A stretch of DNA of 64,000 nucleotides from assembly GCA_010015585.1 (NCBI GenBank), contig ML975172.1; one strand, written 5' to 3'. The notes below the pieces were generated by a model. That model was not told where the DNA came from and did no database searches. It saw nothing but the letters and a program-made list of their open reading frames with translations. Positions 13,087 to 62,223 of this stretch are shown one piece after another; position 1 is the first letter of the stretch; each line of letters starts with the position of its first letter. The position numbers and the translations under genes were made by a program. The stretch is from Eremomyces bilateralis CBS 781.70 (taxonomy: Eukaryota).

Positions 13087-13818
13087 GGGGATATCAGACA
13101 CGACAGCAAAAAACCCGCACCGGATGATCCAGGACGAGTATCGAGCGAAATGGAGGGAGAGATGGCAAGCCGAAGCGGCCAGACCAGGAAGGAGAGCAAG
13201 GACATGGAAGGAACCGTGGGAAACCCAGTGCCTTAACCGGTACGACGGCCTTCAGAAACACGAGACCCCGGCGCTTATGGCACTACGGACTGAGGTAGTT
13301 GGAGTTAAAGGATGGCTCGCGAAAATTGGTGTCCCTGGAATCCACCCAGCGTGTGAGTGCGGTGCCCCCCAACAGACTCTCTACCATCTCCTTGCATTTT
13401 GCCCGCAGCGGACCGACCAGAGGATCGCGCTCCTCCAACGAGCTGGAACAACGGACTTTAAGAGGATATTGCATGACAGGGACAAGGTGCGCCACGCAGC
13501 AAAGTGGCTGATCGATGCGGGAGGCCTAGAGCAATACCGGGTGGCCAAGGAAGTTGAGGAGGAGGTAATAGAGGACTGGAAACCGTTCCAGTTCCTCCAC
13601 GACGTGCCAGAATAAGCTCTCCGCGTAGGCGGAAACACCGACTCTTACGGATAGATAATAAACGTTTAAGATAGTCTACTAAAGGGAGGAGGCGGGATTT
13701 TATGTACCCGCAGCCTCAGGGCTACGGGGAAACTTTTGCCCGCGGCAGACCAGATAGAATACCGTGCTCATAGACCCGAAAGGGATCCAGATAGTACGTT
13801 AAATTGATTCTTATTATA
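13087..13818 (+). mobile_element. 5'-truncated Tad1-like LINE (ORF2 C-terminal zinc knuckle, 3' UTR, TAT-type tail)
   Basis: ORF 13124-13615 has LMALRTEVVG..CECG..QTLYHLLAFCP (CxC-x7-H-x4-C). Preceded by TACATACTGGGCATA (13072-13086), which recurs at 15953-15967; ends in TTCTTATTAT. Confidence 0.88.
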
Positions 13819-13839
13819 ATTAGATACATCTTTACCAAA

Positions 13840-21922: not shown

Positions 21923-24900
21923 TCAATTCTCCGTCTCAACAAGTCCCCGGAACCGTCCACCATCTTTCCGCATTAACTCTCCCGGGGAGCCGACCTCCAC
22001 AATCTTCCCCGCATCCATGACCACAATCCTATCAAACTTCATCACGGTTTCCAGTCGATGAGCGATCGCGATCACCGTGGGACGGTGCCTGAACAGCTCC
22101 TCATCACACACCGTGAGCATGCGCTTCTCCGTCTCCGCATCGACCGACGAGGTCGCCTCATCGAGAACCATGATCTTGGCGTTGCGCAGCCGAGCCTGGA
22201 CAAGCGCCCTGGCCAGCGCGAGTAGAGCGCGCTGCCCGTGAGAGAGGACTGCCTCCACGGTATCCATGGAGAGGTCTAACAATGACACTGCGCTCGAGTA
22301 GCCTGCAATATCCCGAAGTGTCCCCAGGAGATCAACATGAGCCAGCACCGATTCTAGGGCAGAATCGTCAACGGACTGTGGCCCCGTCGAAGCACGAAGC
22401 TGAGCGACACGGTTGGCATATAATTCTTCCCGAAGAGTGGTATCACCGCCGATGAAAACGGGCTCTTGGGGCAGCGCAACGACGGACTCGCGGACTTGGG
22501 TCCAGGACAGACCGCTAGCGGCACCGAGGTTCAGCCCGTCAATGGAAATTGACCCGGTTCGAATGTTGAGAAGTCCGAATATGCTCGCGACGAGACTGGA
22601 TTTTCCGGAGCCGGTTCGGCCAACCACGGCAATGCGCTCGCCAGAGTTGATAGTGAGGTTGATAGACTGTAGGACAGACGGGGTGTGAGGAGTGAGAGAG
22701 TAGCCAGCGGCGAAATCTTGGAAGTTGATGCAGCCAGACATGATCGGGTTTCCATGCCCCTCAATCGTCTCTAATGGAACCTTTGAGGGCGATGTAGGCA
22801 CTGGGATGCTTTGGGGACCAAATGAGTTCTCCTGTGGAGTGTTCGTCGCAAACTTCCGGATGCGAGTAATTGCACTGAGTGACGTCTCCAGGTCCGTCCA
22901 ACTCGTCACCAAGACTTTAATCATTATCCCCAAATCCATCGTTCCGACAAGAGCCAGGCCGAGGAATCCAGCATCAAGCTTATTCTTCAATGGGATGGCC
23001 AAGCCGACTGTTACGATGACGATGCCTGCAACCATCAATTGAAGAACCAGATGAAGCCAATTCTGAATGGCTGCCAACAGATAGAATGGACGCTGCGACA
23101 GGTTTAGCAACTCCATGTTCTGCCGATCATATGATTCCGACCACCCGAACGCTCGCACCGTGCTAATCCCAGCCAGCGTCTCCAAGAAATGGGTGCACAG
23201 CGGTGCTTTCGCTTCCAAGTCCATGAGCCGCATTTGCCGGCTCGTCCGTAGGTAAACTCGCTGGATAACCCAAGAGATTCCGAGCAGGAATGGCACCAGC
23301 GCCGCGATTGGAGGGGTCGCAACAACGACCAGTCCGAAATAAAGAGCGCAATTGAGAATCTCTCCGGTGGTGTTAATGAAGGCATACGGAAGATTTCTGT
23401 CAACCAGTGCGATGTCTTGTGAGAACCGGTTGGTGATGTTGCCAATGTCGGTGGAGACTATGAAGGGAAATGATGCGTAGAGCAGTGCTTTCAGTTGGCG
23501 TGCATGTAGCACTCGACTAGCCGAAGGTATGATGCCGAATGAGAAGTGGGCTATCCATATACTGATAAAGGCAATGGCCAGCACGGATATCACGATGAAT
23601 ATGGTGAGGTGTCGATACATCACTTCCAGGCTTTGGTCATTAAAAGAAGCCCAAAGCTTTAGCCATAGAACTATTATATGTTAGCATTGTGGAACGAATG
23701 AGTGTATGCTTAACTCACATTGAGAGAAGGTCATCCCACTTTCCAGCACCATGACCGAGAAGAAGATGATACAATGCTTTAATCCAATAGCAGAGAGGTA
23801 ATATTTGAACGCAGCTTTGTCCCCGGACCTCCGATCGTCGTCAATTACGTAGTCATCCAAAGGAGAATTCTTTGCCGGAGTAGCCTTAACCAAGCTCACT
23901 GGCGTTTGATCTTCATTTTCATCCACACCATTATCTGAAGAAGTCTCTGATGATTGGTCATTGATCAGATCCTTGAAAAGCTCCGAACTCTCGATCAGCC
24001 TCTCTGGTGTATCCGATTCGACGATATTTCCCGACTGGAGTATAACTAATAAGTCCGCCTCTTGAACCCATTTCAAGGAATGCGTTGCGAGTACGACTGT
24101 CGAGTTTGATTTCCGAAGAAGTCCCTGTTTCCCGAACACTCGATGGAACACAAGTCTCTCTGTCGTTGAGTCTAAACCGGATAGTACGTCATCAATAATA
24201 AGTACCGCTTGTCTTGAATAGACCGCTCGTGCCAAAGACATGCGGTTCTTCTGTCCGCCGCTAAGTGCGATCCCTTTTGAACCGACAACGGTCAGGTCCC
24301 CCTGAGACATGTCCACGAAGTCTTCTTGCAAGCCGCAAGCATATACAACTTGGTTGTACCAGGTGGAGGAGAAGTCACTCTCGCCAATGATATTTTCTCG
24401 TAATGTTTGATTTCGCAGCCAAGGAGTTTGGGAACAAAATGCCACTGAATCCTGGCTGCGGCTCATTGTCCCATCCAAAAGTTCTATTTCCCGTGCCAAA
24501 CATCGTAGAAAAACCGATTTCCCACTAGCGACCTGGCCAATGATGATGGTTAACGCATGAGACGGGATTTCGAGATTGGCATTTCGGATAATCGGCTTGT
24601 CCGTGTCAATGCCGATCGTCGCGTTTCGAAGGCATATCGCCACTGTATCGGAATAATGTGGCATGGCCTGTAGGCAATAACTAGAGCGTCCATCAAGTCC
24701 CTGGATGTTGTGGTTTTCGCTGGTTTTGCCATGATTCTCAGAAACGAGATACCTATGGATCCGCTCCAAAGAAGAAAACGCATTCTGGAAAGTAGCTATG
24801 CTCTGTAGAGCAGGTAGGAGAGGGGTTGTGATAAGCTTCAAGGCTGATAGAGAGGAAAAGAGCCGAGAAAAGTCGAGTATAGAACCTTTCGACATGTCTA

Positions 24901-26437
24901 TTCCTGCAAATAGGGCATAAGTAGCGAGAGCCGCCAACGGAAAGATGAAGTTTGCAATGGCGATGATAATGGAAAGTAGATGGAATGAATAGTTCGACTT
25001 TTTGACTTCGGTCTCCCGCAGGTCGGTCAACCTATTCTCGAAGACGCTGGTCAGGCCCAGCATTCGGATTCCTTTTACCGAAGCCACCATATCTGAGACG
25101 GATTTCACTCTTTTCTCGGTCATCCCCACGTAGTTGAGTTGACGTGGTCGAATTCTACTTCCCAGAATTGAACAAATGAAAGCCGCTGAGAAGATGGAGA
25201 CCAACGCTCCCAGGAAGGCAATTCCAAGCTGATGGTAGAGAATATAGGACGCAATTCCACTCTGTACAGCGGCTGACCAGAATTCGTGGAATCTTGGGAG
25301 CCCTTCAACAACCTTTTCGACATCCACATTCATAAGAATTGTCGCTGAGCCCATGTTGACGTCTTTGGGTGAAATTTCTAGCGTCTTGCCGTATAGCAGC
25401 GAAATGAGTCCTCCTCTTATTTTTGCCTTGAATCGTGCCAGCGCTTGCAAATGCCAGGCGGAGAAGATCGCAAGGAACATATAATCCAACGAAAAAGCAG
25501 CGAGGAGTCCATAACCGGTATTTCTTGTCGTTTCGCTGTCGGGAGTTTGTACGTATTTTGTGATAGCCGGGATCAAGAACGTCTGCGATATCGTCATCCC
25601 TATCTGCAGGAGCATAGGTATGACGGGAATGACGATATCCGCAGGGATGACTTTGACAATCGTCCATAGCAGAGACAGCCGCTTCTCCTTGTTTCTCGTT
25701 TTGGCCCATGATTCTCGGAACGAGACTTGGAGACTCTCGGCAGTCAAGTCCCCATCCAGCGAAAACAGATCATCGGGCTCGAGGATCTGTCGATATCCAG
25801 CGCGAAAGAGGCCGTTCAAGTGCCAAAACAGCTTCTGAGCAAACAAGCCTATAGTATCCTCAGGAGAGAGCCTCGTAAAAGTGTCAGACAGGAGCTCCGA
25901 CTTGTCTAGAGACTCTAGAAGGAGCAGCATGGCCGTCAAGAAGGTATGGACAGAAGCAACCGACACTAACGACGATTCGTATTTCATCAAGAACAGCGTT
26001 CGAAGCCTAACTGCATCGGTGGCCAACAGAACTAGCAAGAATAACTGCAATAAATGGCTAGGTCGCACGGCTCGCGTATGTTCTAACCGTGACAGCGCAA
26101 TCACAGTCAAAGATCCCAGGAGCTCAAACACCGCCGCCGCAACTGTTTCTCGGGTTCGGAACCTTGCTTCGCTCCAAAGCACAAGCAGCGCCGTGCTTGA
26201 CGCCGCGTAGATGAAGGTAGCGACGACTTTGAGAGTTCCAAGGCGGGAGTGCTTCGTAAGTCTTTCTCGACGCAGCCGGAGAGTACTGTAACGTATCGGT
26301 GCAAGGAGGAGAAAGAAACATTGTGGGAGAAGCGCGAAGATGCTGTCTTCGAAGAGCAAGGTGAAGTCGAAGGAGCCACGACAATGATCACCGACTGTCG
26401 GGCCAAACGTGCTATCCGTTGGACACACCCGTGCCAT
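21923..26437 (-). CDS. Full-length ABCC/MRP-type ABC transporter (TMD0-TMD1-NBD1-TMD2-NBD2)
   Basis: Start MARVCPTDSTFGP..CRGSFDFTLLFE. NBD1 GQVASGKS / LSGGQKNR / LIIDD; one intron 23671-23718; NBD2 GRTGSGKS / LSHGQ / VLDEATS / IAHRL. Confidence 0.95.
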
Positions 26438-26891
26438 GATTACCAGACTGATAACGTATGAACCAAGGATGATAAACAAGAATTCGATAGAACTATCGAA
26501 ATTGCACCATAGACATTTCCACCATGATAAAACTGATGCCACTTAATTAGCCGAACACCTCTGGTTATGTACGAAGGTTAGCGAGCTCTAGAATTTGCAA
26601 GGACGCGCCAGCCGATGAGTATACGCAATCCAGCTCCGCGTTCTGCAATAATACCTAGCTAGTTGCGGCACGTCGGAGTCATCACTCGTCAGATAAGACG
26701 GATCTCCGACACAAAGAATCAACATGATAGGTTCGATGAAAAACCTCCTAATCGCATACGCGGGATCTGAGCGATCTTGAAGGTGAATTGAGTTGGTGCC
26801 TGATGGCAGTTCTAGATATTAGTCTGACGCCGTTTGGAGTTCGACTTCGGGGTTCGACTTCGGAGTTGGATTTTTGACGACCGCCAAGCTA

Positions 26892-28715
26892 AGTTCGAAT
26901 CCCTGCCAAATACCATAAGCAACCACCTAAGTAGCCAGTATCACCATCTCAACCACCATCACCTAGACCGTGATACCACTACGTAATTGTATTTAGAATT
27001 TAAACTATACGACTATTGCACAATATCTTGGGGAGACTCTTGGGCAGTTTGAGCTATTGGACTAGCCTGATTTGGTGGTGTATTCGCGTCAAGAAGTCGT
27101 ACAGCCTCTTGCGCTAGTTTGATCTCTTGAATCTGTGCGAATTTGACATTAAGATCTATCTGAACCTTCCTCTTACGTTTTGGGAGTGGAGCGGAATCTA
27201 GGTGGGCCTGAAGACCAGCAATTTTCAGTTCTGACGCAGCCTGGCGCGCCTGTAGCACTCCGATTGCCTTTGCTGCCTTCTCTATGTACGACTTGGTCGC
27301 CTTCGCCATGTGTGTATTCTTGCTAAGAACGCGCAATGCACTTTGTATTTGTTTGGGCCTGTAGGGCATCGTCTGGAGGACTGAGGGGACTAGTATTGGG
27401 GCGCGTGGAAGCGTGTTTGGTGGTGGAATTGAGGATGTTGTTTCGGTAGGCGTGGGCGGTACCACGAACCGGTTATTGAGGCCTTTTGACGGGTCCCACG
27501 GTATAAGACCTGCCCCCTTCCACCCCGATCTGATTGTACGGTCGGTTAGGCGTGCCTGGCGCGCCTTAGCATAGAGGACAATGAATCTTTGTCGTTTAAT
27601 CGGTAGCGCCTCGTCGATAAATGCGCTTTGGCGGAGGAGGGCCTTGTAGAAGCGTTTCAGAGGTGAAAAACAGGCGAGATCGAGAGGTTGAAGGATATGG
27701 GAGGTATGCGCAGGTAGGAAGACCACAGTCATGTCGTTTATCCTGCATTCGTATAGGAAATCGACGGTTGCATGGCTTCCGTGCCCGTCCATGAGTAGGA
27801 TCCTGGACCGTCGCTCTGTAGCGGTTTCATGGATGAAAACCGTACGAAGCCATACCAACACGTGTTTATCTGAAGCCCATCCGTTCGAAGATACCGCATA
27901 ATGCAAGTCTGGAGGCTGTCCGGGGAACCAAGCAGATTGTAGGGACGCGCCTTTCTGGATAACGGTTGCTTTGAGAGAGCGACTGGTTGCAGACTGCTTC
28001 TAGGATAGAAAACCATTCCCGGTTCTCAGGACTCGTGATTTAGGCTGTCGACTTCTGCGAGTCTGCGATAACAGTAGAAGTAGAACTAGCACATATTCCC
28101 ATTCCAACACCGACTTCATCCATATTTCATGTATCGGAAGAGTGGACATCGTACTGTGTCTGAACTTGGTGAAAATACGCGTAAAACCCAATGATTGTAT
28201 CCGGTGTTGCAGCCCGACGTCATACGACATCTGGACTATGTCCAATACAGGTCGCAACGCGTGGATTTCGATGTAGAAATCGCGGTACCCAGTTCTTCCC
28301 AAGAGGGGTGGAATCTTCTTGAAGGGATAGAACTCGCGATGCCATTTCTCGCAGTCGTGCGTGGGTAGGAGGGAATCCTTGAGCGTTATTCTCAAGTATC
28401 CAATCAACTAAAAAGGCCTCTTGCACCGGTGTAAGGCGTTGGTTCGATCGTTGAGCTTTAGCTCGTGGAGGGACACCTCTGAGGCGGTTTTGAAGCGTTC
28501 GTCAGTTGACCTGGAATAGGGCCGCAGCTTCGTTTTGTGATTTGCATTGACCGGTCTCTACTTAAGGCATGAATGGCATGTTGGACTCGATCCTCCAAAG
28601 ATGACATCGTAATATTAGACGGTGGCGGTGACATCACGGTTCAAGTGATGGTGGTTGAGATGGTGATACTCTACTGGCTACTTAGATGAGTGGCTACTTG
28701 GCTGGGGTTCGAACA
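26892..28715 (-). mobile_element. Full-length but decayed Fot1/pogo transposon, ~85-bp imperfect TIRs, TA target duplication
   Basis: TIRs 26892-26975 and 28632-28715 (GTTCGAA..CTAAGTAGCCAGTA..TATCACCATCTCAACCACCATCAC) flanked by TA. Transposase fragments GKNWVPRFLHRNP, IWNMDEVG, SNGWAS, LLMDGHGSH, SHILQPLDL with frameshifts. Confidence 0.93.
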
Positions 28716-32706: not shown

Positions 32707-34328
32707 CATTGGGGTGGTCAAATTTGTGGCGCAGAGGTCTTAGCAGCTGATATATCTCCAGCTCCCTCAACTTTGATCTTCAATATCTTCACCATTTTTT
32801 ATACAAATCATGCCAGGAAAAGAGTGGGATAGTCTCCGTAAGATTGCATTTTTTAGGCTCTATGATCAGTCCAAAACCGCCAATGATTTACCTCAATCTG
32901 TCGCCAAAAGGGCATTAAGATCCCACCATCAACAGGCCGCCGATGGCTTGCCCAATGCGATGAGCCAGGGCTACGGGCTATACGACGTACAAGGGATATT
33001 AGCAAACGCCTTGGACGACCTCCTAGCCTCGATAGCCGGACGCTTCAGAGCCCCCTCGATCCGTAGAACGAGCTATACTGGAAGTCAAGAGAGGAGCAAG
33101 CAAAAGAGCTAAGGGTATACACTCGAACACTCCAAAAGAACTTCTCTAAACGGCTCAACGCGAGGCGCTATAAGAAGCCACAAACCAAGGCTATCAGCTC
33201 TACAAACAAGGGGGTCCGGAAGGTCTATGGGGAGGACCATCGTGGTAAGTCAATCAAAGATCTATGGCGATGGCTCTACTTCATAGACGGGACCTATTTC
33301 AACTCCAGAGATCTCGCTGATAAGCAGGAATACGAGTTACGGGTCCCAGGCGAATCTCAACGATTTAAATCAATACAGGGGATTCAGGGTAGCCCCCTCG
33401 ACGTAACGGTTCACGTTGCAGCCGGAATCTCCTATGATCGGAAAGGGGTCTTCCATTTCTACCCTAATCCAGCCGAACCAGCTGCAAAAAGGGCGTATAG
33501 GCCCCGGAGACCGCGGAGGTCAAGTGTTGAGACTTGTAAGTGTATCACTGTAGGGAGTCTCCAATCGTGAGGCAAACATTGAATTGTTGCTATGAAGGAG
33601 GAATCTATCTAACTGTAAGGTGTGCGAGGCGTTTATCTGTTCTGGTGTTTACAGAGCAAACGGGCCAGGGCCACAGCAGGGCCACATGACAAGGCCACAA
33701 GGCCACAAGGCATCCAGGTCGATAGACCTCTGATCCATCACAAGACTACTGAGCAGTATACCGCTGCATAAGAGGCGTGGGAGGCCGGCTAGCGGGGCGA
33801 TATTGACGTAGATATCAAGATTAAAGGGAACTCGATGACCCAAAATTATTACGCTCAATACATCCTTCCAAAGCATATCGAGCATATTAAGGCTCTTGGT
33901 GAGCAATTCGGCCATCGTTTCTACTTATAGGACGACGGTGATTCATCGCATGGGATGCGATCCTTGATGAATCCAGCCGCGCAGGCTAAACCCGCGGCAG
34001 GTATCTTGATACTCCCCAATCCAGCGCAATCGGCTGATCTCGACCCCAATCGAGTCAATTTGGCAGATCATAAAGTAACGGCTACGCGGCGGGAGGTGGG
34101 AGACGGTGAAAGAGTTCAAGGAGGCGATCCTACGCGAATGGAAGCGTATTACACAGCAGCAAATCCGTTCAAGGACATCTGAGATGCGTTGGCGATGTGA
34201 GAAAGTAGTAAAACTTAAGAGAGCACGTATTAGGAGCTCGTTGTGGTAGATACCAACAATTGAAGTCGTTGATAGCGTGCTTTGTCCGGTGCCAAGACCT
34301 CTGCGCCACGAATTTTACCACCCCGGTG
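32707..34328 (+). mobile_element. Decayed Tc1-like (ITm) DNA transposon with ~40-bp TIRs
   Basis: Left TIR CATTGGGGTGGTCAAATTTGTGGCGCAGAGGTCTT after TA; reverse complement at ~34290-34328. Transposase relics: ATG 32810, WRWLYFIDG, KGNSMTQNYY..ILP, DGDSSHG, PAQSADLDP(I)ESIWQIIK. Confidence 0.9.
33535..33742. mobile_element. Solo LTR (208 bp) nested in the Tc1-like element
   Basis: Begins TGT, ends ACA, flanked by perfect 5-bp TSD AGACT (33530-33534, 33743-33747); removing it restores the transposase frame (RRSSVET-TEQY). Confidence 0.9.
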
Positions 34329-35079: not shown

Positions 35080-35438
35080 GTCGCTTTGTAATGCCTGCTC
35101 CAACCTGTGCAACACGGGCTTAACTGTGCTAATATCTTTGGCGGCGTCTGGAGCATCTTTAACATTGTTGATGGTCTTGGCGAGGAACTATGCGCTCTAA
35201 AGAGCTGCCGTGGTGATGTCTACGATAGCAGCAGTAATATTAAGAGGGTTCGTTATGGTTACAGAAACCGTTCATGGAGATTAATCGATGGGTTCCCAAC
35301 CGAGGTAAAGAAACGAACACTGGAATGGAGGGATGAACGGTACGTTGGCCCGTTGGGAGGGCTACACTTCAATTGAGACGGTGCTGAGGGGCTGCGACGA
35401 ATCATCAGGTGCACCTAGACGCTGCCGCTTCAATACGC

Positions 35439-38400
35439 ATGACGAGGTCTTTTGTTCGTCGATCAAAATCGTCGATCAACACCTATGCAGACCAAAGTTG
35501 TGACGAGATTACATCGTTGAGTATTCCATCAAGGCATAACGTAACAATGGTAATGGTACGCAATAGCGGCGATACCTCCGGTAAGTACCTCAGTTTTGCG
35601 GCTTCTAGATACATCAAATTGACTAGCAGTCTAGATTTAGATCGAGTACTTAATATCTTACCCATTGCTGCCGATGCATCGTTCAAATCATTCAAGCGAC
35701 AGCACGAACCAACCTGCCACCCCGATACCCGTGTCGCCCTCCTCCGAGAGATATACAACTGGGCTGATGGAGAACGCTCACCATTCATCTTCTGGCTGAG
35801 CGGTTTGGCCGGCACTGGCAAGTCTACAATAGCGCGAACAGTGGCCGCCAGTTACTCTCAGAAGGGTCAACTTACGGGGAGCTTCTTCTTCTCACGGACC
35901 GGGGGGGATGTTGGTCGCACCGGAAAGTTCATTACAAGTATTGCATTCCAGCTTGCGAATGCAATACCAGATTTGAAGCCTAAGATTTGCGATGCTATAT
36001 CTAAGTGCAATAATATTTCAAGCTGGTCTCTCCACGATCAGTGGCACGAACTCATTCTTGGTCCCTTATCGAAACTTGACGACAAGGATTGCCGATCGAA
36101 ACATGTCCTTGTTGTCGACGCGCTTGATGAGTGTGAAGATCAGAACAATATTCAGATTATTTTACAACTTCTAGCTGAAGTTCAATCATTAAAGGTTATT
36201 AAGCTACGAGTGCTTTTAACGAGCAGGCCTGAGGTTCCGATCCAGCATGGGTTCCACCAAATACGAGAAGACGAGCACCAAGATTTAGTACTTGATGATA
36301 TTAAGCGGTCGATTATAGACCACGACATTTCTGTTTTCCTGAGAGGCAAACTCAGACTTATTGGACGAGAATGTCGATTTAAGGCCGGCTGGCCGGAAGA
36401 CAGAGCTATCGAACGCCTAGTCCAGAACTCAGGGGGATTGTTTATCTGGGCTGCAACAGCCTGTCGGTTCATCGAACAAGACGGCCAGCTTGCAGAAACA
36501 CGACTGACTTCTCTTCTATGGGAAGGCAGTGGTATACTTCTACCAGAGCGGAAGCTTGATAAAATATATACCACCGTCCTCACCAATTCTCTCCGAGGAG
36601 AATACGATAAAGAAGAAAGCTGGAGGCTGCACAAGCTATTTCGCCAAATTGTTGGACCTATGGTAACGTTACGAGATCCGCTATCCGTATCTAGTCTTGC
36701 GGAGCTGCTTGGGAAAGATGTCCACACTTTAAAACGAACCTTGACCAACTTATATTCCGTTCTCGATATGCCGAACATCGAGACAAATACCATTCGGCTT
36801 CTCCATCCATCATTCCACGACTTCCTTCTTGACCAGAGCAGATACTCGAATCCTCAATTTTACATCGACAAGAAACTCGTCCATCGTCTAATTTATCAAA
36901 ACTGTCTTCAAGTAATGTCAAAGCACCTACGGCGCGATATCTGCAATCTCCAACATCCGGGAGCTTCCACAGCCGGCTTGAGCGGAACCGAATTAGACAG
37001 ACATGTCCAACCTCCTGTCCAGTACGCATGCCGGTTCTGGGTATATCATTTCAAGCGAAGCGATATGGACATTGGCGACTACGATGACATTGAAGTATTT
37101 CTCCGAAGGCACTTCCTTCACTGGCTTGAAGTACTATCATTGCTAGGTTGTGTCTCTGATGCGACTTTTATGATTGATATGCTAGACTCAACATTGGTAA
37201 GAAGACCGATCACGGAAATCGATGACACTAGCTGACCGGTCAGAATATGCGAATCGAGCAACCTCAGATGCGATTAGGGCTTCGTGATAGAATAAAATCG
37301 ACCTTTCTACACCGCCTTGACCTCAAGAATGAAGGAACAACACCTTCTAGTTTACAAGCTTTCATACATGACGCTATACGCTTCACCGTAACTTTTCAAC
37401 CGGTTTTGGAAACGTCACCACTACAAGTATATTACGGGGGTCTAACATTTAGTCCGAATGCGAGCATTGTCAGGAAGAACTTCTTGATTGAAGTTCCAGC
37501 TTGGATCTCATGCATGCCCAAGGTGTCGGAAAAATGGAGCCACTATTTACAGGTGTTCAAGGGCCATTCAGGCCGGGTCACGTCCGTGGACTTCTCGCCG
37601 GACAGCAAGACGCTGGCATCAGCATCAGAGGACGCAACGATCAGGGTGTGGGACGCCGGGTCCGGAAAGGCGCTACAAACGCTTAAGGGCCATTTAGACT
37701 GGGTCATGTCCGTGGCCTTCTCACCGGACAGCAAGACGCTGGCGTCGGCATCGGTGGACGCGACGGTCAGGGTGTGGGACGCCGAGTCCGGGAAGGCGCT
37801 ACAAACATTTAAGGGCCATTTAGACTGGGTCGCTGCCGTGACCTTCTCGCCGGATAGCAAGATGCTAGCGTCAGCATCGAGCGACGCGACGGTCAGAATA
37901 TGGGACGCCCGGTCCGGAAAGGCGCTACGGATACTCAAGGGCCATTCGGGCATAGTCAAGGCCGTAACCTTCTCGCCGGACGGTAAGACGCTGGCGTCGG
38001 CATTATGCGATGCAACGGTTAGGGTATGGGACGTCGAGTCCGGAAAGGCGCTACGGACACTTAAGGGCCATTCGGGCTGGGTCGCGGCTGTGACCTTCTC
38101 GCCGAACGGCAAGACACTAGCGTCGGCATCATGCGACGGGACGGCCAAGGTGTGGGATCTCGGGTCTGGGGAGACGCTACAGACGCTTTATGGCCATTCG
38201 AACGTGGTCGCAGCCGTGACCTTCTCGCCGGATGGTAAGACACTAGTATCAGCATCGTGGGATACGACGGTCAGAGTATGGGACGCCGGGTCCGGGGAGG
38301 CGCTACAGACGCTTAAGGGCCATTCAAGGGCCGTTAAAGCCGTAGCCTTCTCGCCGGACGGCATGACGCTGGCGTCGGCATCGGGAGACACGACGGTCAG

Positions 38401-40426
38401 AGTGTGGGACGCGGGGTCTAGAGAGACGCTACAGACGCTCAAGGGCCATTCGAACCGGGTCACGGCTATAGCCTTCTCGCCAGACGGTAAGATGCTAGCA
38501 TCGGCATCAGATGACGCGACCGTCAAGATATGGGACGCCGGGTCTAGAAAGGCGCTACAGACGCTTAAGGGCCATTTGAACCTAGTCACGGCTATAGCCT
38601 TCTCGCTAGACAGCAAGACGCTAGCTTCGGCATCAGACGACGGGATAGTCAGGGTATGGGACGCCGGGCCCGGAAAGGCGCTACAGATACTTAAGGGCCA
38701 TTCGGGGTGGGTTACGGCCGTACTCTTCTCGCCGGACAGCAAGACGCTAGCGTCGACATCATGGGACGCGACGGTCAGAATATGGGACGTTGAGTCCGGA
38801 GAGGCGCTACAGACGCTTAAGGGCCATTCGAACGTGGTCATGGCTGTGGCCTTCTCGCCGGACGGCAAGATGCTGGCGTCAGCATCGGGCGACGCAACGG
38901 TCAGAATATGGGACGCCAGGTCCGGAAAGGCGCTACGGATACTCAAGGGCCATTCAGGCTGGGTTACAGCCGTGACCTTCTCGCCGGACGATAGGACGCT
39001 GGCGTCGGCATCGTGGGACACGACGGTTAGAGTATGGGACGCCGGGTCCGGAAAGGCGCTACAGATACTCAAGGGCCATTCGGGCTGGGTCGCGGCCGTA
39101 GCCTTCTCGCCAGACGGCAAGACGCTAGTATCGGCATCGTGGGACGCGACAGTCAGAATATGGGACGCCGGATCCGGGAAGGCGCTGCAGACGCTTAAGG
39201 GCCATTCAAACCTGGTCGCAGCCGTGGCCTTCTCGCCGGACGGCAAGACGCTGGCGTCGGCATCGTGGGACACGACGGTCAGAATATGGGACGCCAGGTC
39301 CGGAAAGACGCTACAGATACTCAAGGGTTACTCGGGTCGGGTCACGGCCGTAGCCTTCTCGCCAAACGGTAAGATGTTAGCGTCGGCATCGTGGGACATG
39401 ACGGTCAGAGTGTGGGACACCGGGTCTAGAAAGTCGCTACAGATGTTCAACGGCCATTCGAACGCGGTCACGGCCGTAGCCTTCTCGCCAGACGGCAAAA
39501 CGCTAGCGTCCGTATCGGACGATACGACGGTCAGAATATGGGACGCCGGGTCCGGGAAGGCGCTACAAACACTTAAGGGCCATTCGAACCGGGTTACGGC
39601 CGTAACCTTCTCGCCGGACGGTAAGACGCTAGCATCGGCATCGGGCGACGCAACGGTCAGAATATGGGATGCCGGATCCGGGAAGGCGTTACAGACGCTT
39701 AAGGGCCATTCGGGCTTTGTCGCAGCCGTGGTCTTCTCGCCAGACGGCAAGACGCTGGCGTCGGTACCGTGGGACATGACGGTCAGGGTGTGGGACGCCA
39801 GGTCCGGAAAGGCGCTCCAGACGCTTAAGGGCCATATGGGCATAGTCATGGCCGTGGCTTTCTCGCCGGACAGTACGATTCTGGCGTCGGCATCGTGGGA
39901 CGAGACGGTTAGGGTGTGGGACGCCGGGTCCGGGAAGGCGCTACAAACACTTAAGGGCCATTCGAACCGGGTTATGGCCGTAACCTTCTCGCCGGACGGT
40001 AAGACGCTGGTGTCGGCATCGAGCGACGCGACGGTCAGAATATGGGACGCCAGGTCCGGAATGGCGCTGCGGACGCTCCAGACGAATTTCAGTATTGGCA
40101 GCTTATCGTTTACCGAAGACGGGTCGTGTCTTATGACTAACAGGGGATTACTATATATTTGGGATCCTTCCAATCCCACAGTTCTTTCTCAACCCACGTC
40201 TCAGCCGTCAGCATTTATCGAGGATGAATGGGTATGGTATGGTGGTGAAAGAATTCTTTGGCTTCCTTTAGAGTATCAACAATCAACATGTACTGCTGTC
40301 CATGGTAGTACTGTTGCGTTTGGGTATTCCTCTGGTCAGGTTTTAATTATTGGATTTGCGTTTGAACATTTGCGTTTGCCTTTACCACCTCCCCAGTCAT
40401 CTCCGTTGCAGTTACGCTCTCTTTGA
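35439..40426 (+). CDS. Fungal NLR: NACHT-WD40 (HET-E/NWD-like) with 20 conserved WD40 repeats
   Basis: CHPDTRV, Walker A FWLSGLAGTGKSTIARTVA, SFFFSR, Walker B LVVDALDECE, LLTSRPE, GLFIWAATAC, LHPSFHDFL, YACRFW, FLHWLEVLSL. Intron 37197-37243 joins the two long ORFs; probable intron 35581-35634; start codon uncertain. Confidence 0.95.
37556..40076 (+). repeat. Tandem array of 20 x 126-bp WD40-coding repeats
   Basis: 42-aa unit LKGHSxxVxAVxFSPDGKTLASASxDxTVRxWDAxSGKALQT counted 20 times. Confidence 0.97.
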
Positions 40427-40859
40427 TTTCGCCATTAATAGGACACTAATGAGGAAGGGATGATTGGAAACAGATGATTGGAAATACAATGGCTTTTGAA
40501 ACTAAACTATATACTCTTGAAGGCCTGCAGAGAGCGGACTCTACACCTCCACCCAGGGCAGCCTGGGAGCCCATCGAAGACGATACCGACAATTGCCTTC
40601 ACGACGCCTGCGCAGCAGTGGCGAAGCCTTTCACCTTAACACCCCGACGACTACAAAGTACTAAGAGCCTGGATCACACCGAGCGGCGTTCGCCTCCGAT
40701 ACCTGTGGGGGAGGATTACCGTTTACCTTTGTTTGGGTGCAAAGGGACTAGGTTGGGATCCTGAATTAAATGAAACCTATATACATCCCGCTCTGAGGAA
40801 TTGGTCGTTATTGGGGGCGAGTAAGGTCAATCATACTGTACCGGGCCGCATAGGCGGAG

Positions 40860-41836
40860 GGATGAATGAACTTATGGGTAAGATGCGAAGCGTGGTTATC
40901 CATCAAGAGCAGTCGTTTCCCCTTCTTAGCCCGGTGTCTTGTATACCGATGGAAATCCTGGATCCAATCGAAGGCAATAAGGTCGTTTGACCACCCAGAC
41001 TTAGAGATGTTGATACAGTAATCGTCTGGAATCTGGCCTTCGTACCATCGTTCAAGATGGTTCTCGCCCTTTAAGATAAAGTAGGGCGGAAGAACAAAAC
41101 CATCAGCAGCGACACACTCGATATCCGTAACCGATTCGCCTGACTCCGTACTAGGACTGCCTCGTTTTGCCCCCGGTCGGAAACTAACCACTTTTTGCCG
41201 CTTCCCTTCACCAAGGCGGAAGCCACTTTCGTCGAAATTATATATATTCCGTGCCTCGATTCCATGCTCTTGAATCTGCTCCTGAAGGAGTTGAAACCAA
41301 TACTGTATATGTCCAAGATCCTCAGCACGTAGGCAGTCGTCTTTAACTGGTTTTTGGTCGATAAGCGAAAGGGTGTGGCGCTTGATAAATTTATATTTCC
41401 AGTTCTTACTAACGTGAGGTGGCTGCGTTGTATCGAGGGCGTTTATTCGGAGTATAGAGTTGGCGCACGCTTCGATTTCTGTAGGCGTAGGAGGCGCTCC
41501 CCACTCATCAAGCTGATGGATCCAAGCTAGGAGAGCCTTATCTGTAGCTGATCGAGTTTAGACGCTTGTACGAACGGAGAACGGTTGGTATAGGATGTTT
41601 TTCCTTCAAGGCGGCCTCGAAGGACAGGCCGGCTGATTTGGAACTCACGCGCTAACGCTGAAACGTTAACCAATTTCCCTGCTTTTTTTTTTTGGCTCTG
41701 TAGCCTTCTTGAGTGCTTTCTGTATAGTCTCCTCTGAATATTTGACACGTTTAGACATGTTTGGTGGTATAGATTTGAAGATGATGGTAAAATTGGACTT
41801 TTGGCGTGGGTTTGACTTTTGGTGTGGGAGCACCAA
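40860..41836 (-). mobile_element. 3'-truncated Fot1/pogo transposon relic
   Basis: 5' end TA|TTGGTGCTCCCACACCAAAAGTC with internal repeat; SALAREFQISRPVLRGRL, NFDESGF, ESVTDIECVAADG, SKSGWSND, LLLMDNHASH, then breaks off. Confidence 0.88.
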
Positions 41837-50429: not shown

Positions 50430-51450
50430 ACGTAATCCACCACCGAGTCGGACACTTCTACTCACGACAGCGATCATCCCTATTTTTTCATAATGACTCA
50501 ACAACGACACTCAATTTTCTTCAAAAGAAGCCGGAATCAATATGGCTATTGAGGTTATCGATCAAGGCCACATTCGATCAATTCGAGGCGCTGCAAAGAC
50601 CTATAACGTCTCGAAAAGTACGCTATCTGATCGCCGTCATGGGACTCCTTCACGACGCGATCGCGCTCCCAATTCGAAAAAGCTCTCAGACATAGAAGAG
50701 AGGGTTATTATCAATTACTGTCTCGACGTCGACGCGCGCGGATTTCAACTTAATTATGGCATGTTGCGAGATATAGCCAACAAGCTACTCAGCGATCGCG
50801 GTCAGGCTCATGTTGGCATCAATTGGCCTTCAAGATTCGTACAACGCGTTCCAGAGCTCAAAACACGCGTTAATCGAAAGTACGACTATAAAAGAGCCCT
50901 GAACCAAGATCCAGAGATTATTCGCGCGTGGTTTCGCCTCGTACGCAACGTAAAGGCAAAATACGGCATCCTAGATGAAGATACAGACAACTTTGATGAG
51001 GTTGGCTTTCAAATGGGCGTAATCGGGACGCGCATGGTCATCACGGGTACCGAACGACGTCAGTCTCCAAAAACGTTGCAACCAGGCAATACAGATTGGG
51101 TGACATCGATCATTGCTGCCAGCGCGCAAGGTTAGGTTGTCCCACCCTTTATCATCTTCAAAGGCGCTCGACACTATGATACCTGGTACGAGGCGATTGC
51201 GGATAGGCCTGATTGGGTTCTATCAGTTAGCGAGAAGGCTGGACGTCTCTTGAGCATGGATTTGAGTGATTGGAGCATTTCAATCGCTTCACAGAAGGCC
51301 GTACTACTAGTGCCTATCGGCTCCTGATTATAGATGGCCATAACAGTCACAACACCATCGAATTCCAGGATTTCTGCAAGGATCACAAAATTATTACACT
51401 CTATATGCCTCCGCATTCATCTCATTTACTATAGCTACTCGACGTTGGCT
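50430..51450 (+). mobile_element. 3'-truncated Fot1/pogo transposon relic
   Basis: TA|ACGTAATCCACCACCGAG terminal sequence; SIRGAAKTYNVSKSTLSDR, VGINWPSRFV, NFDEVGF, QPGNTDWVT, IIDGHNSH, LDVG with stops and frameshifts. Confidence 0.92.
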
Positions 51451-56109: not shown

Positions 56110-57774
56110 CTTGTGATATGTGGGGATATCCAAGATATCAGTCGGAAAAGGCTCAATATCGGTTGCGCTCGGAGAATGGGATGCGCTCGGTCTCGTATAC
56201 GTCCCGTCGAAGTTGAGTTCAAAGGGAGTTTGTCATCCTTCTCATCGGCCTGAAATATCCGGAAAGCCTTCCAAAGAGTAGGTATGAGCCTTAATATAAA
56301 GCGTACGGCGCAATCACGAGAAAAACGAGAGGATGATAAAGCCTGGTGTCGTGATGTTGCTCAAGGCTGTCTAAGATGATGCGGGTTGGAATCGAGAGAT
56401 CTTGAATGCGACAGGCAGAGGAAGGAGAGGAGAATAGATAGGCTGAAACCTAATTTGAAGATGGTTTGCTGGAATTCTGATAGTGCTGGGGATCGTTTGG
56501 TTTGATGTGATATGTGGCTCGACACGTTTTTGGTGATGGCAGATGACGTTTGCGCGGAAGTCGTGGACCCTTTATATCTGATTCATCAGCATTCTTCACC
56601 ACTAATACCTATCTACCATCTCTCTTATCACTTCGCCTCTTAATTATTCAGGCAAATACCTCTGTATAGGTATCTTTTAATGGTTTTGTCCGTTGATTTC
56701 TACTGTCATTCGCGATAGGAAGTGGATTGGGCAGGCATGCCTTGTATCCGCCACTCCGGTCAGGTACGATATGCAATATAAATACTGGTACAGGTATTCT
56801 TCAGGGCCATCTTGTCCCTCTTCCTGACTTACAGCGTCATTTGGATCGGTTTACAGTCGTTCAAGTTAAGGCGTCTTTTCTTTTTGGCTGTTTTCTGCCG
56901 TTGTTTAGAGTAATTAGAGCGTCTGTCTTCATACCTTCCCTTCATTCCTCACATCATCCACGGTCCCAGTCCACAGGCACTGGCATCGAGTACGTACCCT
57001 TCAGCTAGCAAATGAGCAATGGGGTGCCTATTGAAACTTCGGGCCAATGAATGACTCTCGGGTCTCTCTCATGTGTCTGGTTGACCATGGAAATAGGACT
57101 CGGGTGGAGAACTCCGATGCTACAATCAACATTCGAAGACAAGTGAAGCGACTTTTGCGGCAGAGAATTCGATTCTTTGCTTGGCTACATTTGTCTAAAT
57201 ATCCATTGCGTCAATCCGAGGGGTATTCTATTAGGATATTGCCTGGTTACTCCCCTCTGTTCATCCAAGTTCTGCATCGTTTGGGCGCTTCCCAGTTCTT
57301 CATTGACAGGACTAGGACGACATGGTACACGCTCTATCTAAGCTAGATGGTCTATTGGGGCAGTGATCTCGCGAAGCTGAACGATCTTCATTCTAGTACA
57401 ATAGCTACTTCTACTAACAGAGAATCAGACACCCTGGGAGTTCAAATTCGTGTATATGCCGACCCTTTCCTAAGCCAACAGCAGCTTAACTTGTTTACAG
57501 TTTGCGTTCTACGGTTGCATACACAGCAGAAGCTGACCTGTTGGGCATGAATGGACTTGAGAATCCGACTGTATGCAAGCTTTCGCAGTACCATCTGCAG
57601 GTCGTATGCAAGACGTGGGGCCATGCATATAGAACCATCTAGACAAAATCAGGAGGCTGGAGCCTTCTTACATGCTTCACACCCGTATATTCAACACAGT
57701 TTCCATGGTATCTCTCTCTTCATTCGAATACAGCTCTCCGATCCAGATAATTCACACTCCGCTCTTCCGCAGCA

Positions 57775-58685
57775 ATGGTAATCAAAGGCTCCAAACAACC
57801 GACCTATGTCCTCCTCAACGACACACTGCCGTCCACCGGTTCGCACTCCCAACTACTCGGCCCGTTCGTAGCGAACCCGCTGAGTCCAACCGACGAATAC
57901 GCCCCCGATGATCATTCCATCATCACTGAGATCTTCAGCTCCCTCTCCCCGAACCTCGAGGCCGCTCGCAGTTCGTCTCCCAGCAATTCAGTGCATCTAA
58001 GTCTACCGCCGTGCAAGCACGCCTCGAGCACTTGTTGACGCTGGGCTGCACGGTTTAGCGTCAAGCGGACTGGTATGTTGACACGCCGCGAATTTTGACG
58101 CGGCGGTTAACACAGCATCGGCGCGTCTTTCAGTCTCTCATGCGCGACCAGGAGATCAAGGCGGAGGCACTAGACTTGCTCGAGAATAATGGCGGAATCG
58201 CGTACATGGCGGTTGTGACGCGATCCTTCACGGATGCCAAGGTGGTGGAGAACGGGGGTGTTCAGAAAGAGTTGGAGGGAAGCGTAGCGGTGCCGTTGGA
58301 TAAACTAGCTGGCGATGCTTCAGTCCCGCCGCCGGCGGTACCAAACTTGACAATGAGCGGGAAGAAGGAGGAGACGACGGATTAGGGTAGGGAATACGTC
58401 GTGGAAGGAGAACGGTTCTTCCAGGCACAGTATAGAATCATTAAGGCAAGAAGGTCTGGGTTCCTTGGGCTGGGTACGGGGTTGGTGACGGTACAGTTTG
58501 GTCAGATCGCTGGGGTTGAGGCTGGGAGCAGAACATTCCATGACGGAAGCCCAGTTATATACAGAGATGATCAGGACGAAGAGGACGAAATAGATGGTGA
58601 TATTGACGAAGATGTCGGTATCTCGGAAGAAGATCTTACAGCGGAAGCACTTGGCATGTCTGGTTCGTTGCTTGTGACGGAGTGA
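57775..58685 (+). pseudogene. Fungal gasdermin-like (HET-Q1/RCD-1 superfamily) gene with one frameshift and two in-frame TAG stops
   Basis: Reconstructed ~300 aa: LLGPFVANPLSPTDEYAP, SKSTAVQARLEHLLTLG, FQSLMRDQEIK, AYMAVVTRSFTDAKV, GSVAVP, GERFFQAQYRIIK, acidic C-tail. Frameshift near 57965, stops at 58056 and 58383. Confidence 0.65.
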
Positions 58686-58799
58686 CATTTATATTCCTGA
58701 AGTAAAGAGCATATCCCCAGGGCTTCTGGGGCCGGTGGTAGTTATTTGTAATGCATATCGTGTGCCCCTGTGCTCTCCTTCATCTGAGACTTCCGCAAC

Positions 58800-59640
58800 T
58801 CATCCATCCATATGACCTTGTTGCTGTTCCGGAGTGAGATACAAAAAGATAATCTGCCCAGTAATTTCCAGATATTCATCGAAAGCGAGGCGACCGCGTC
58901 CCATCTCAAATCCTAGAGGTTTGCAAAGAAGCTGAATCTGATCCTCAGAACTCAGATTCTCGAAAGGGATCAGAGTTTCTCGTGCTGCGATCGCCCGCAC
59001 GTAAGCGTCCATGTCGACTTGGGATTGAACCGATTCTCCAGCCTACGTGATGCGGAGCATTGAACGTAAAGCGGAGGAGAGCGCGGCACTGGGCGGCGTC
59101 TGGTTGTCGAAAGAGTCGCTGATTTGTTGGAGTCAATTCCAACTGCTCGATCGAGTCCACTTTCTCGGAGTACGCGTTCCGATTTCCCCAGGTTACCATA
59201 TGCCTGGATCAAAAGCCCACCGGCCTTCTCATATTGCTGCAGGCGTAGATAGGAAAGGCTCCAACGAGAATTGCGTTCGATCAACCCTATCGGAGCAGCT
59301 CGAGTCGCCCAATAGCCACCAGAAAGACCTGATTCAAGAGCAGTATACCGGTCAATGTAAGCAGCCGCAGAATGCCAGTCCTTCTCCTTGATGGCCATAT
59401 CGATCAATTGCTCGTAGTAAATTCCCTCAGCGGGTTTATCACCCCCCCTCTTCATATCTTCCAAGTCCAAGGAGCGCTAAACCGTAAATCAAGAGAGCAT
59501 GGCATTTGGCAGCGCGAAGCTCCGCATCATCTTTGTCGAAATGCATTCCATATCCATGATCATCGTCGAAATTTTCGGGAATTTATCCGGATTTGTCGCT
59601 TGGGATACAATTCGGCGGAGCATCTCAGCCGCCTGATATA
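58800..59640 (-). pseudogene. Decayed TPR-like repeat gene
   Basis: Frameshifted helical fragments ALLIYGLALLGLGRYEEG, LIDMAIKEKDWHSAAAY and WSLSYLRLQQYEKAGGLL fit the TPR pattern; boundaries approximate. Confidence 0.45.
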
Positions 59641-60027
59641 TGCTTTATTGGTCCAGGGGCGATGATCCAATGATTAAAACATTTCGAACCTTCTCCGATG
59701 GAATTCCTGTACGATCAGGATCTCCACAACCATCTCGGAACTTCAGTCTACCAAGGATAATCGGAAATCCAACAAATTGAGATAAAGATGTGGAAACCAA
59801 CTAGACTTTCCCTGTGGTATTGCGAAAATAAAGTCCAAAATATCATTCTCAACTCGACCGCCATGCAAAACACCAAACGCATTGCTTCACAACCCTGGCT
59901 GCATATCTTAGTGTGCAATATTCCGTTCCTTTTCCTGCTGAGGAGCAAGTTCTCTAAAGGAGCGAATCGTTACCGGAGCTATTCCTCCTTAAATCTCCTT
60001 TTGCTAGCCCCAAAGTTCCTTGAGGTA

Positions 60028-60807
60028 TTAGCCTGGAAGACTGCTATGGCTTGACTCGTCCAGTGGCGTCTGGTCGGCCCCAACTGGAACTTGGTCAGTC
60101 ACCCCTTTTCCACCAAGCAACCCCATTGCACGGAACAGCCTCAAGGTCCTAGCTTCTTGCTTATCACATAGCATTACATCGTGCCGTTGTAAATGCTCAG
60201 TGATCATCCGGTATGCATCTTTCCCTTCCTTTCTAGGAACTTTCATTTCAATCTCCATCAGATGGTGCGGCAGTGCTTTCACATCGTCGAATACCGCTTT
60301 GAATCCTTTGATTCTGAGCTTCCATTTCGGATTTTGGTACGGACCGAAGGGCACAAGGTCCGCCCAAGCAACCCGCTGGAACTGCTCAACGAAAGCGACC
60401 TGGTCGTCGCTCCAGAGTGACTTTCGATGCAGAGGTGATCTGCGTTCACAGGTGTAGAAGGTCGAATTGCCGTATTGATCCCAAACACAGTGAGCCTTGT
60501 CTCGGATGGCGGTTTCGTCTTCGTCGAATCGAACCTTGACTGAGGAGATCTTCTGTCGTTTGCTGATCATCGTACGTTTGCTCATCTTCGTGCGAAACAT
60601 GACCCCATTCTCAGTGTACCTGGGCATCTCCGTGTCATAGTAAGTGACCGGATTCTCTTTATATGGTTTGGAGCCTTTGTGCCCTAGCTTTTCAAGCACG
60701 ATTTTCGGGTGGGGGTCACAGAGTGACCATTGTAGGTGTACACTTTCTTTCGCCTTGGTACATGTAGCAACAGTGACCAAAACCAGGAATAGGAATACAC
60801 GCAGCAT
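60028..60807 (-). CDS. Intronless secreted protein with CYTH-like (triphosphate tunnel) features
   Basis: Signal-peptide-like MLRVFLFLVLVTVATC; YYDT..GVMFRTK..SSVKVR..LWSDDQVAF..LVPFGP..KWK..LMEIEMKV..QEART. Confidence 0.7.
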   Translation of the reverse strand: MLRVFLFLVLVTVATCTKAKESVHLQWSLCDPHPKIVLEKLGHKGSKPYKENPVTYYDTEMPRYTENGVMFRTKMSKRTMISKRQKISSVKVRFDEDETAIRDKAHCVWDQYGNSTFYTCERRSPLHRKSLWSDDQVAFVEQFQRVAWADLVPFGPYQNPKWKLRIKGFKAVFDDVKALPHHLMEIEMKVPRKEGKDAYRMITEHLQRHDVMLCDKQEARTLRLFRAMGLLGGKGVTDQVPVGADQTPLDESSHSSLPG

Positions 60808-62223
60808 CTTGAATAGCTATAGCGATATTTAGTGCAATAACTAATAAAGAAATGTTTAAATACAACACTCGTTGAAGATGAGGGTTCGTATGAATATATA
60901 CATCCATCATCTGATGGATGATCAGCACAAGTCGTGCTTGTGACGATAGGATGACGCAAAATTGAGACATTGTGGTACTTCAAAAGGTGTACAGGATAAA
61001 CTCTTATGATAACATAAAACTTCGACCTGGAGGCTACTTTAACAGTATATCGTAATAAACAAAGAAACGGCAGCCATGTGTCTTTTTTCCTTCACAAGTC
61101 AGATAGAAGCGTTCTGCAGACTGGTGAATATATCGACGATGATCCTCGTCGAGTGAATGCTGGAAAAATAAACCGCCCCAGACCACAACTCAGACTCCGT
61201 ACGGAAACATGTAGTGCATAACACATGTATCCAACTTGAAGGAGACATAAATCACAAACAACGGTGTTCTCATAGCTAGTCGGACGACCTTGAACTTCCT
61301 CTGGCAACCTCGCAGAGTCCCAAAGTTACGTCTACTGCAGCAAAAGAGCTGATACATCCCCTTCATCATCCTTGTGAGCTCTTTACTGAACTTCTGGCAC
61401 TTATCATAGGGTTTTTATTGCGCACTGGTCAGGTTGGCATACGGACTCACGCGATAACAGGCATCATATCGAGATATAAGACAGGCATACGGCTTGAGTC
61501 TTAGCCTCGTGTAAAGCTCGTTCTCGTCATTCGTCGCATCACTCTATAAGCTTTGATCAACCAATATGCTACTTCTCACACCCTCTTCGGACACAATTGA
61601 GATTGATGGTATCTCGTACTGTTGGGCCTGCGGCTTCCCGCTGTCGTATGTGTCTCCATGCGTCTGTGAGAGATGCAATTTGTTCAATTGACTTGGAGAT
61701 GTGGAGGGAGAGGGGGAGCAAGGGGGAGAGAGGGCGCGGGGAAGGGAGAACACGGGAAAGAAGAGCGCGATCGACGCGTCAGGGGAACTTCTAAGCGGAA
61801 CATATGTTACATTAAAAGGCAAAATTCATGGCTCGCTGGGGATGTTATTTGCTGATACGGGCACCATTAAGGAGGAAGAGAGCAATGATACATACTAGAG
61901 GTGGCAAACCAAGGAAACTATTCCTCTCAGATGCATATTGATCACATAGCAACATCTTGAAGTGCGGCATCTTACTATTATTCTCTCCCATACTTCGCTT
62001 TGCCACTGATTCCGGTGAATGTCCCTTAGAATTCGGCAGCAGAGCGTCGAGCTGGACCGGATCCCTTTTCCATACGCTGGCTTGAGCTACTTTGTCGAAT
62101 ATCTTCTTACATGACCATGGCCCAAATATGATTGGAGCGACATTCTTCGCTTCCTTTACTAGTCGCCATGGATCGATTGGCGTAGTCTAGGCCATCAGAT
62201 CGAAATTCTCTGATAGGAGCAGC

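Follow-up and report, generated by a model that had tools for sequence, protein, structure and literature searches.

The question raised by positions 57775-58685 of a 64,000-nucleotide stretch of the Eremomyces bilateralis CBS 781.70 genome (the whole stretch being referred to here as the window) is whether adjacent open reading frames (ORFs) on the plus strand are the remains of a single gasdermin gene and, if so, whether that gene can still produce its protein. The original prediction had joined three ORFs into one protein, through a frameshift near 57965 and two TAG codons, and had likened the product to the fungal gasdermins. A survey of these proteins by Clave et al. (2022; PMC8851545) covers 401 species and counts 1,884 homologues. 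A gene for an S8 or CHAT protease lies within 10 kb of 80% of these homologues, while the other 20% are without one, and the proteases are often part of NLR-like proteins (PMC8851545). One such pair consists of the gasdermin Q1-6 and a CHAT protein, Q2L-6, by which it is processed (PMC8851545). In this study, we examine the reading frames, relatives, predicted fold and genomic neighborhood of the E. bilateralis locus. The preferred reading, to which we assign a probability of about 0.8, is that a gene for a fungal gasdermin-like pore-forming protein has decayed here into a unitary pseudogene.

Relatives of the locus were sought with a read-through of the phase-0 frame (P0001), which carries X at both TAG codons and from which the N-terminal 52 residues are absent. 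A phmmer search of 1.84 billion representative proteins, at a cut-off of E <= 1e-3, matched 83 proteins, mostly of 280-320 aa. In 64 of these 83, the alignment already starts by residue 30 of P0001, inside the stretch of 42 residues upstream of the first TAG. The best matches in the alignment are single uninterrupted proteins that span the whole locus: the phase-1 ORF matches their N-termini (M..PTFVLL..LP..LLGRFVADP..PTDEY.PEDP), and the phase-0 pieces account for everything past approximately residue 65. P0004 is the closest relative (62% identical) and reads straight through the position of the second TAG into the same acidic tail; the nearest intact relative is P0005 of Dactylonectria, with 38% identity. 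These relatives appear to form a clade of proteins of about 300 aa in the Pezizomycotina that are listed as 'hypothetical' in public records.

A profile HMM, A2, was built from 61 full-length intact relatives of about 300 aa from other Ascomycota species, with the sequence of the window left out. It was used to scan all stop-to-stop pieces of 57301-59000, followed by the whole 64-kb window (pieces of at least 20 aa). Within 57301-59000, A2 matches four plus-strand pieces in collinear order and in two frames: 57751-58035 (profile positions 5-69, E = 9e-14), 57930-58055 (positions 60-85, E = 3.7e-3, a piece of 42 aa that scores just 12.7 bits alone), 58059-58382 (positions 90-197, E = 6e-29) and 58386-58682 (positions 202-287, E = 3e-12). 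As a control for chance, the same four were the sole A2 matches at E <= 1 among the 2020 pieces of the 64-kb window. A word-indexed search with the same profile returned three proteins only, and nothing new but P0091.

The interval 57775-58685 (+) is accordingly described as a single gene of about 300 codons, broken by a 1-nt frameshift and two in-frame TAG codons. The phase-1 ORF runs from an ATG at 57775 to a TGA at 58036-58038, and the phase-0 frame is open over 57930-58685, with TAG 58056-58058 and TAG 58383-58385 as its sole interruptions and a TGA at 58683-58685 as its end. Phase 1 provides the N-terminal coding part at 57775-57969, approximately residues 1-65 (M..PTYVLL..LP..LLG.FVANP..PTDEYAP..), where the start codon is preserved and the sequence can be aligned to the N-terminal ends of intact relatives. 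Both frames match profile positions 60-69, which places the change from phase 1 to phase 0 at approximately 57967-57972, a position that is not exact to the base; in effect the lesion is a 1-nt deletion or a 2-nt insertion. A hand check of the sequence at this site found no GT..AG intron of fitting length and phase. The original arrangement of three ORFs with one frameshift and two TAG codons was therefore recovered, the ORFs and stop codons lying where they had been placed and the frameshift a few bases further on.

Past the frameshift, phase 0 encodes at 57972-58055 a segment ending in ..VSQQFSASKSTAVQARLEHLLTLGCT, the start of the first long beta-hairpin, after which the first TAG (58056-58058) falls in a variable column of the alignment (S in 17, G in 8, A in 7 and Q in 5 of 64 relatives). 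The core of the gasdermin-like domain follows at 58059-58382, with helices (..TRRLTQHRRVF..), an AYMAVV strand and the second hairpin, all modeled with a pLDDT of 85-96. The second TAG (58383-58385) occupies a column in which W is the commonest residue, being found in 18 of the 64 other rows of alignment A4, including those of the nearest relatives P0004, P0005 and P0006; the stop would fit the expectation from a TGG to TAG change. Beyond it, 58386-58529 encodes the last conserved strands of the fold (GERFFQAQYRIIKARR.. and ..VQFGQIAGVEAGS, at residues 154-175 and 186-193 of P0001), and 58530-58685 encodes an acidic C-terminal tail of about 50 aa (..DDQDEEDEIDGDIDEDVGISEEDL..SLLVTE) with its TGA stop, a candidate inhibitory peptide. 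Besides the three lesions, the start codon, the family motifs (LLG, YM.V, P and GE..F..QYR) and the tail have all been retained.

The identity of the family was approached through its sequence profile and through predicted structures. When A2 was compared with all PDB sequences, the best match was chain 9uv9_A (E = 4.5e-4, 23 bits, profile positions 25-168 against chain residues 25-175), and entry 9UV9 is the pore of Podospora HET-Q1 (PMC13475620). It was the sole significant match, the next having E values of 0.23 and 0.28, and a sequence link between the family and bona fide gasdermins is supported but, at 23 bits, marginal. P0001 by itself gave no phmmer match among PDB sequences. Pfam likewise assigned no gasdermin family to the window pieces P0001 and P0002, whose sole match was PF22305 (E = 0.23), and none is present among the best 25 of the 34 families matched at E <= 1 by the 61 relatives.

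The gasdermin-N fold has a twisted beta-sheet core and two regions that lengthen into long hairpins in the membrane. An AF2 model of P0005, built with alignment A2, had a pLDDT of 80 and a pTM of 0.71, and a model of P0001, built with alignment A4, had a pLDDT of 76.5 and a pTM of 0.60. In a Foldseek search of the PDB, gasdermins filled ranks 1-9 for the P0005 model, the first being the RCD-1 pore 8jyz_A (E = 4e-9), followed by Trichoplax, bacterial, GSDME, GSDMD and GSDMA3 pores. For the P0001 model, the top nine of nine matches were also gasdermins, and again the RCD-1 pore came first (E = 3.4e-6). For the P0005 model, VIA-align gave its highest Z scores to the RCD-1 pore (12.9; 198 aligned, rmsd 4.9), the crystal forms of RCD-1-2 (12.1) and RCD-1-1 (11.8) and bacterial gasdermins (10.4 and 10.3), with a Z of 7.6 for the first row that is not a gasdermin. 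Both models have an extended, pore-like hairpin shape that favors matches to pore structures, and the TM-scores are moderate (0.41-0.61). In the Atlas, P0005 is located among several Ascomycota 'hypothetical protein' clusters, some of them linked to PF26164 Bact_GSDM. The agreement of the sequence profile, two predicted models and two structural aligners argues strongly for a gasdermin, and the interpretation first suggested by the order of motifs has held up: the profile reaches the HET-Q1 pore, and similarity to gasdermin structures is what both Foldseek and VIA-align rank first.

The acidic tail of about 50 aa that had been proposed is present, predicted to be disordered and conserved among close relatives. 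In the P0001 model, pLDDT falls below 50 at residues 201-232 and 242-251, and the tail of P0005 (residues 253-302) likewise has a pLDDT below 50. The identity between the E. bilateralis tail and that of P0004 is 36/51, versus 70/118 in the core. By analogy with HET-Q1, the tail may serve as a removable inhibitory peptide.

HET-Q1 of Podospora anserina (278 aa) shares with the family a plan in which one gasdermin-N-like domain ends in a short C-terminal peptide in place of a large repressor domain, and in both cases partner proteases are encoded next door, as reported in PMC8851545 and as seen for the family in a relative described below (locus L001). The two differ in that the sequence similarity is faint, that the tail of the family is longer (about 50-60 versus about 40 aa) and strongly acidic, that the one neighbor seen for the family is a CHAT-NACHT protein and not the S8 protease HET-Q2, and that the copy in the window is broken and has no protease nearby. 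The best structural matches of both the P0005 and P0001 models are RCD-1-1 and RCD-1-2 of Neurospora crassa (8JYZ pore, 8JYX and 8JYY crystals). RCD-1 is described as a bare gasdermin-N domain that is activated when two allelic forms meet and has no cleaved tail (PMC13475620; PMC11760362), whereas the family carries a conserved one. The pair Q1-6/Q2L-6 (PMC8851545) consists of a gasdermin homologue of about 35 kDa and the caspase-like CHAT protease that processes it, and the L001 relative has a neighbor of like kind. Bacterial gasdermins (among them 7N50, 7N51, 8SL0 and 9A84) have the same fold as the P0005 model (Z 10.4-7.8), and are reported to carry a short C-terminal peptide that is inhibitory and to have caspase-like proteases as partners (PMC13475620). 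They belong, however, to another kingdom and have no detectable sequence match with the family, the Bact_GSDM link being made through Atlas clusters only.

A protease partner was looked for in the window by a Pfam scan of 134 ORF pieces, in which neither Peptidase_S8 nor CHAT was found. The pieces comprised a first set of 11, a second of 77 of the 106 pieces of at least 55 aa at 51-64 kb (those left out were the pieces of the locus itself, pieces already scanned and overlaps with the RING-finger gene), and a third of 46 of the 72 ORFs of at least 120 aa at 1-50 kb, most of the 26 left out being overlapped by a longer scanned ORF. When the CHAT-NACHT protein of L001 was compared with the window by tblastn, the best E value was 0.12, within WD40 repeats at 37.5-39.9 kb. 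The window, which covers 5.3 kb downstream of the locus, thus gave no S8 or CHAT gene within 10 kb of it, in agreement with the original prediction within the pieces scanned and the tblastn comparison; such a gene is present in L001.

The flanks of the locus contain a RING-finger gene (54.5-56.2 kb, minus strand) and cupin and cullin genes, and the downstream ORFs have no assignment. Among possible partners, a NACHT-WD40 gene at 35388-40423 was rejected: it lies 17 kb away, past the cullin and RING genes and with housekeeping genes in between, and its product lacks a protease domain. This plus-strand gene is of NLR type, with some 20 WD40 repeats after an NPHP3_N/NACHT region (E = 4e-31 and 1e-8) and no recognizable N-terminal effector domain, and transposase-like debris is situated just upstream of it at 33067-33570. 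Copies or fragments of Tc5/pogo-type transposons (HTH_Tnp_Tc5, HTH_psq, DDE_1) are found at 13795-15173 (+), 27016-28407 (-), 40811-41557 (-) and 50497-51132 (+), and a transposon-rich region of this kind fits a fast-changing neighborhood. Convergent ORF pieces lie at 58800-59650 (-), just past the 3' end of the gasdermin relic, among them a piece of 168 aa at 58973-59476 (-). This piece was examined as what might be left of a TPR-protease partner. Its Atlas leads were TPR-like at 0.92-0.94 with low shared counts, and Pfam gave only COG4_N, below threshold (E = 2.5e-4, 21.5 bits); no longer relatives of it were found, which is weak evidence. An ORF of 262 aa at 60031-60816 (-) has a hydrophobic N-terminus that by eye resembles a signal peptide and no Pfam match, and its product may be secreted. 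Elsewhere in the window, two long ORFs at 21926-26542 (-) together make up a TMD0/ABCC-type ABC transporter, and a cytochrome P450 is encoded at 1413-2954 (+); both are ordinary neighbors.

Evidence on the neighbors of intact homologues comes from one related locus (n = 1), the metagenome contig L001; searches from P0010 found no relative locus. At 10001-10888 (+), L001 encodes an intact intronless relative, P0023. It is preceded on the same strand, at a distance of about 290 bp, by a gene whose product has CHAT (E = 2e-11) and NACHT (E = 5.6e-6) domains. By eye, this product also shows the motifs HFDLHG and LNAC, which presumably hold the catalytic His and Cys of CHAT. The interval 5945-10888 (+) of L001, in which P0023 directly follows a CHAT-NACHT gene that appears intact, offers a clean protease-NLR/gasdermin pair for the clade. 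The arrangement is a het-Q1/het-Q2-like pairing (cf. PMC8851545). The same contig also carries a TRIP13/AAA ATPase gene at 370-1518 (-). For E. bilateralis itself, Dataset S1 of the survey (PMC8851545) lists one gasdermin, KAF1810200.1, which stands beside the CHAT/P-loop protein KAF1810199.1. The gene in the window is represented publicly by KAF1809458.1, an accession distinct from KAF1810200.1 and absent from that table, in which a single Eremomyces row was found.

Several other explanations of the locus were weighed against that of a gasdermin pseudogene. One is that the family belongs to a different superfamily of beta-hairpin pore formers (MACPF/CDC-like), or consists of non-pore beta-sheet proteins that resemble gasdermin pores. 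MACPF and CDC pore structures are indeed among the Foldseek and VIA-align matches, and the models are extended in shape. Yet gasdermins took the first nine Foldseek ranks with both models at a probability of about 1.0, against TM-scores of 0.07-0.2 for MACPF/CDC structures; the VIA-align Z scores of 12.9-10.3 for fungal and bacterial gasdermins include the non-pore crystals of RCD-1-1 and RCD-1-2 and compare with 7.6 or less for all others; and the sole significant PDB sequence match is to HET-Q1. Taken with the CHAT-NLR neighbor in L001, these observations make a different superfamily very improbable. A separate explanation accepts the public gene model. The protein deposited for the locus (KAF1809458.1/XP_033531089.1, 'hypothetical protein P152DRAFT_484566', Eremomyces bilateralis CBS 781.70, 180 aa; P0003 here) equals the translation of 57775-57990 joined to 58059-58382, and so treats 57991-58058 (+; GTGCAT...TTTAG) as an intron of 68 nt that takes up most of 57972-58055 and skips the first TAG together with the last part of the frameshifted region. 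The model stops at the second TAG, and the 297 bases beyond it remain clearly homologous. Were the intron real and spliced, the 180-aa product might be functional, for example as a truncated gasdermin-N with a regulatory or decoy role. The spliced model stands at NCBI, and the putative intron has GT..AG borders, a length typical for fungi and a branch-like TTGAC motif about 22 nt before the AG. Against this, its 5' site, GTGCAT, is without a G at position 5, a base that fungal introns usually carry there. Moreover, the phase-0 translation of the putative intron includes sequence that can be aligned with relatives; the 180-aa product would be missing the final third of the fold as well as a portion of the first hairpin; homology is still clear beyond the second TAG (E = 3e-12) and extends to the tail shared with P0004; and P0023 is intronless. 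No splice joint crosses the locus in any contig from the sequencing runs described below, none of which is shown to be RNA; run X3, considered RNA by guess only, gave an unspliced contig of 5.7 kb with DNA-like depth. Other introns that could mend the frame (GTTCGT at 57971; GTATGT at 58073 with CAG at 58113-58115) were rejected by hand check, being in the wrong phase or deleting conserved residues. As both the phase-0 segment within the 'intron' and the sequence after the stop align with relatives, we judge the 'intron' to be a device of the gene predictor that bridges the frameshift and the first TAG, and the 180-aa protein to be an artifact. One frameshift and two TAG codons fit the homology better than the annotated intron, and a functional spliced product seems unlikely.

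The lesions themselves might also be read in other ways. Frameshifts and isolated stops are common assembly artifacts, and the gene of the organism could be intact with errors in the reference. We compared 57400-59000 with Logan contigs from three runs, X1 and X2 being from the same sample and X3, under the same organism label, from a different sample and study. The contigs of X1, X2 and X3 each span this interval in one piece with 0 substitutions, 0 indels and 0 joints, at a word depth of 160-247, and all three lesions are seen in each. Since independently built contigs from three runs, which come from two samples and two studies, agree with the window at every base of this interval, the lesions are not the slips of one assembler, and the frameshift zone has no long homopolymer. 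All three runs may be of the sequenced strain and hence not independent strains, and X1 and X2 may be source data of the assembly, a circumstance that favors the error explanation to that extent; even so, we regard errors in the reference as scarcely credible. A fourth run with a different organism label, X4, covers 58619-58766 only, at a depth of 3.8, and is uninformative. Alternatively, both TAG codons could be corrected to UGG (Trp) by sexual-stage A-to-I editing of the mRNA, with the death protein made at one life stage only. Restorative editing of UAG stops ('premature stop codon correction') is documented in Fusarium and Neurospora pseudogenes (PMC10776026; PMC4817773). Both stops of the locus are TAG with T at -1, and editing of the second would restore exactly the W that is commonest in its column. 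Editing cannot, however, mend the frameshift near 57970, which is present in the contigs of X1, X2 and X3; the defects thus extend beyond the UAG stops to which editing-restored pseudogenes are limited. In addition, W does not rank among the commoner residues at the first TAG, where the column is variable. Reports of such editing concern Sordariomycetes, and the term 'Dothideomycetes' is absent from the main text of PMC10776026. Correction by editing is therefore held to be highly unlikely. The same low standing is given to a more elaborate form, in which the TAG codons would be editing-gated switches that license the executioner only in sexual development, and the frameshift would be a later, strain-specific change or be somehow bypassed. 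If true, this would be the first cell-death pore former under restorative RNA editing control.

A gasdermin pseudogene is thus the reading that we retain. In the intact members of the family, the N-terminal 250 residues or so would adopt the gasdermin fold, and the acidic C-terminal tail of about 50 aa would hold this domain inactive. Once triggered, a protease of the CHAT (caspase-like) type, encoded next door and joined to a NACHT NLR module, would remove the tail. The freed domain would then oligomerize, extend its two long beta-hairpins into the membrane and kill the cell. These roles of tail, protease and freed domain are modeled on HET-Q1 and Q1-6. The copy in the window cannot make such a protein: the uninterrupted reading frame of a functional gasdermin gene is absent, the frame being broken near codon 65 and again by two TAG codons, and no protease partner is present in the available flanks. 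Its inactivation looks recent because the start codon, conserved motifs and tail are otherwise intact, and a null allele or recent inactivation is plausible. The RIP indices of the gene (TpA/ApT 0.70, (CpA+TpG)/(ApC+GpT) 1.01) and of the window (0.71 and 1.16) give no clear RIP signature.

Fungal gasdermins are already recognized and abundant, and one more decayed copy leaves that picture unchanged. The locus indicates, nevertheless, that published counts miss copies, as it is a second, hidden gasdermin locus in a species listed with one, and that automatic gene models can mask pseudogenes by means of invented introns. It also points to a sizeable clade of Ascomycota 'hypothetical proteins' of about 300 aa, with an acidic tail and a predicted gasdermin fold, that is matched by no Pfam model scanned. 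An orphan and freshly broken executioner gene fits the rapid turnover that is expected of immune and allorecognition modules.
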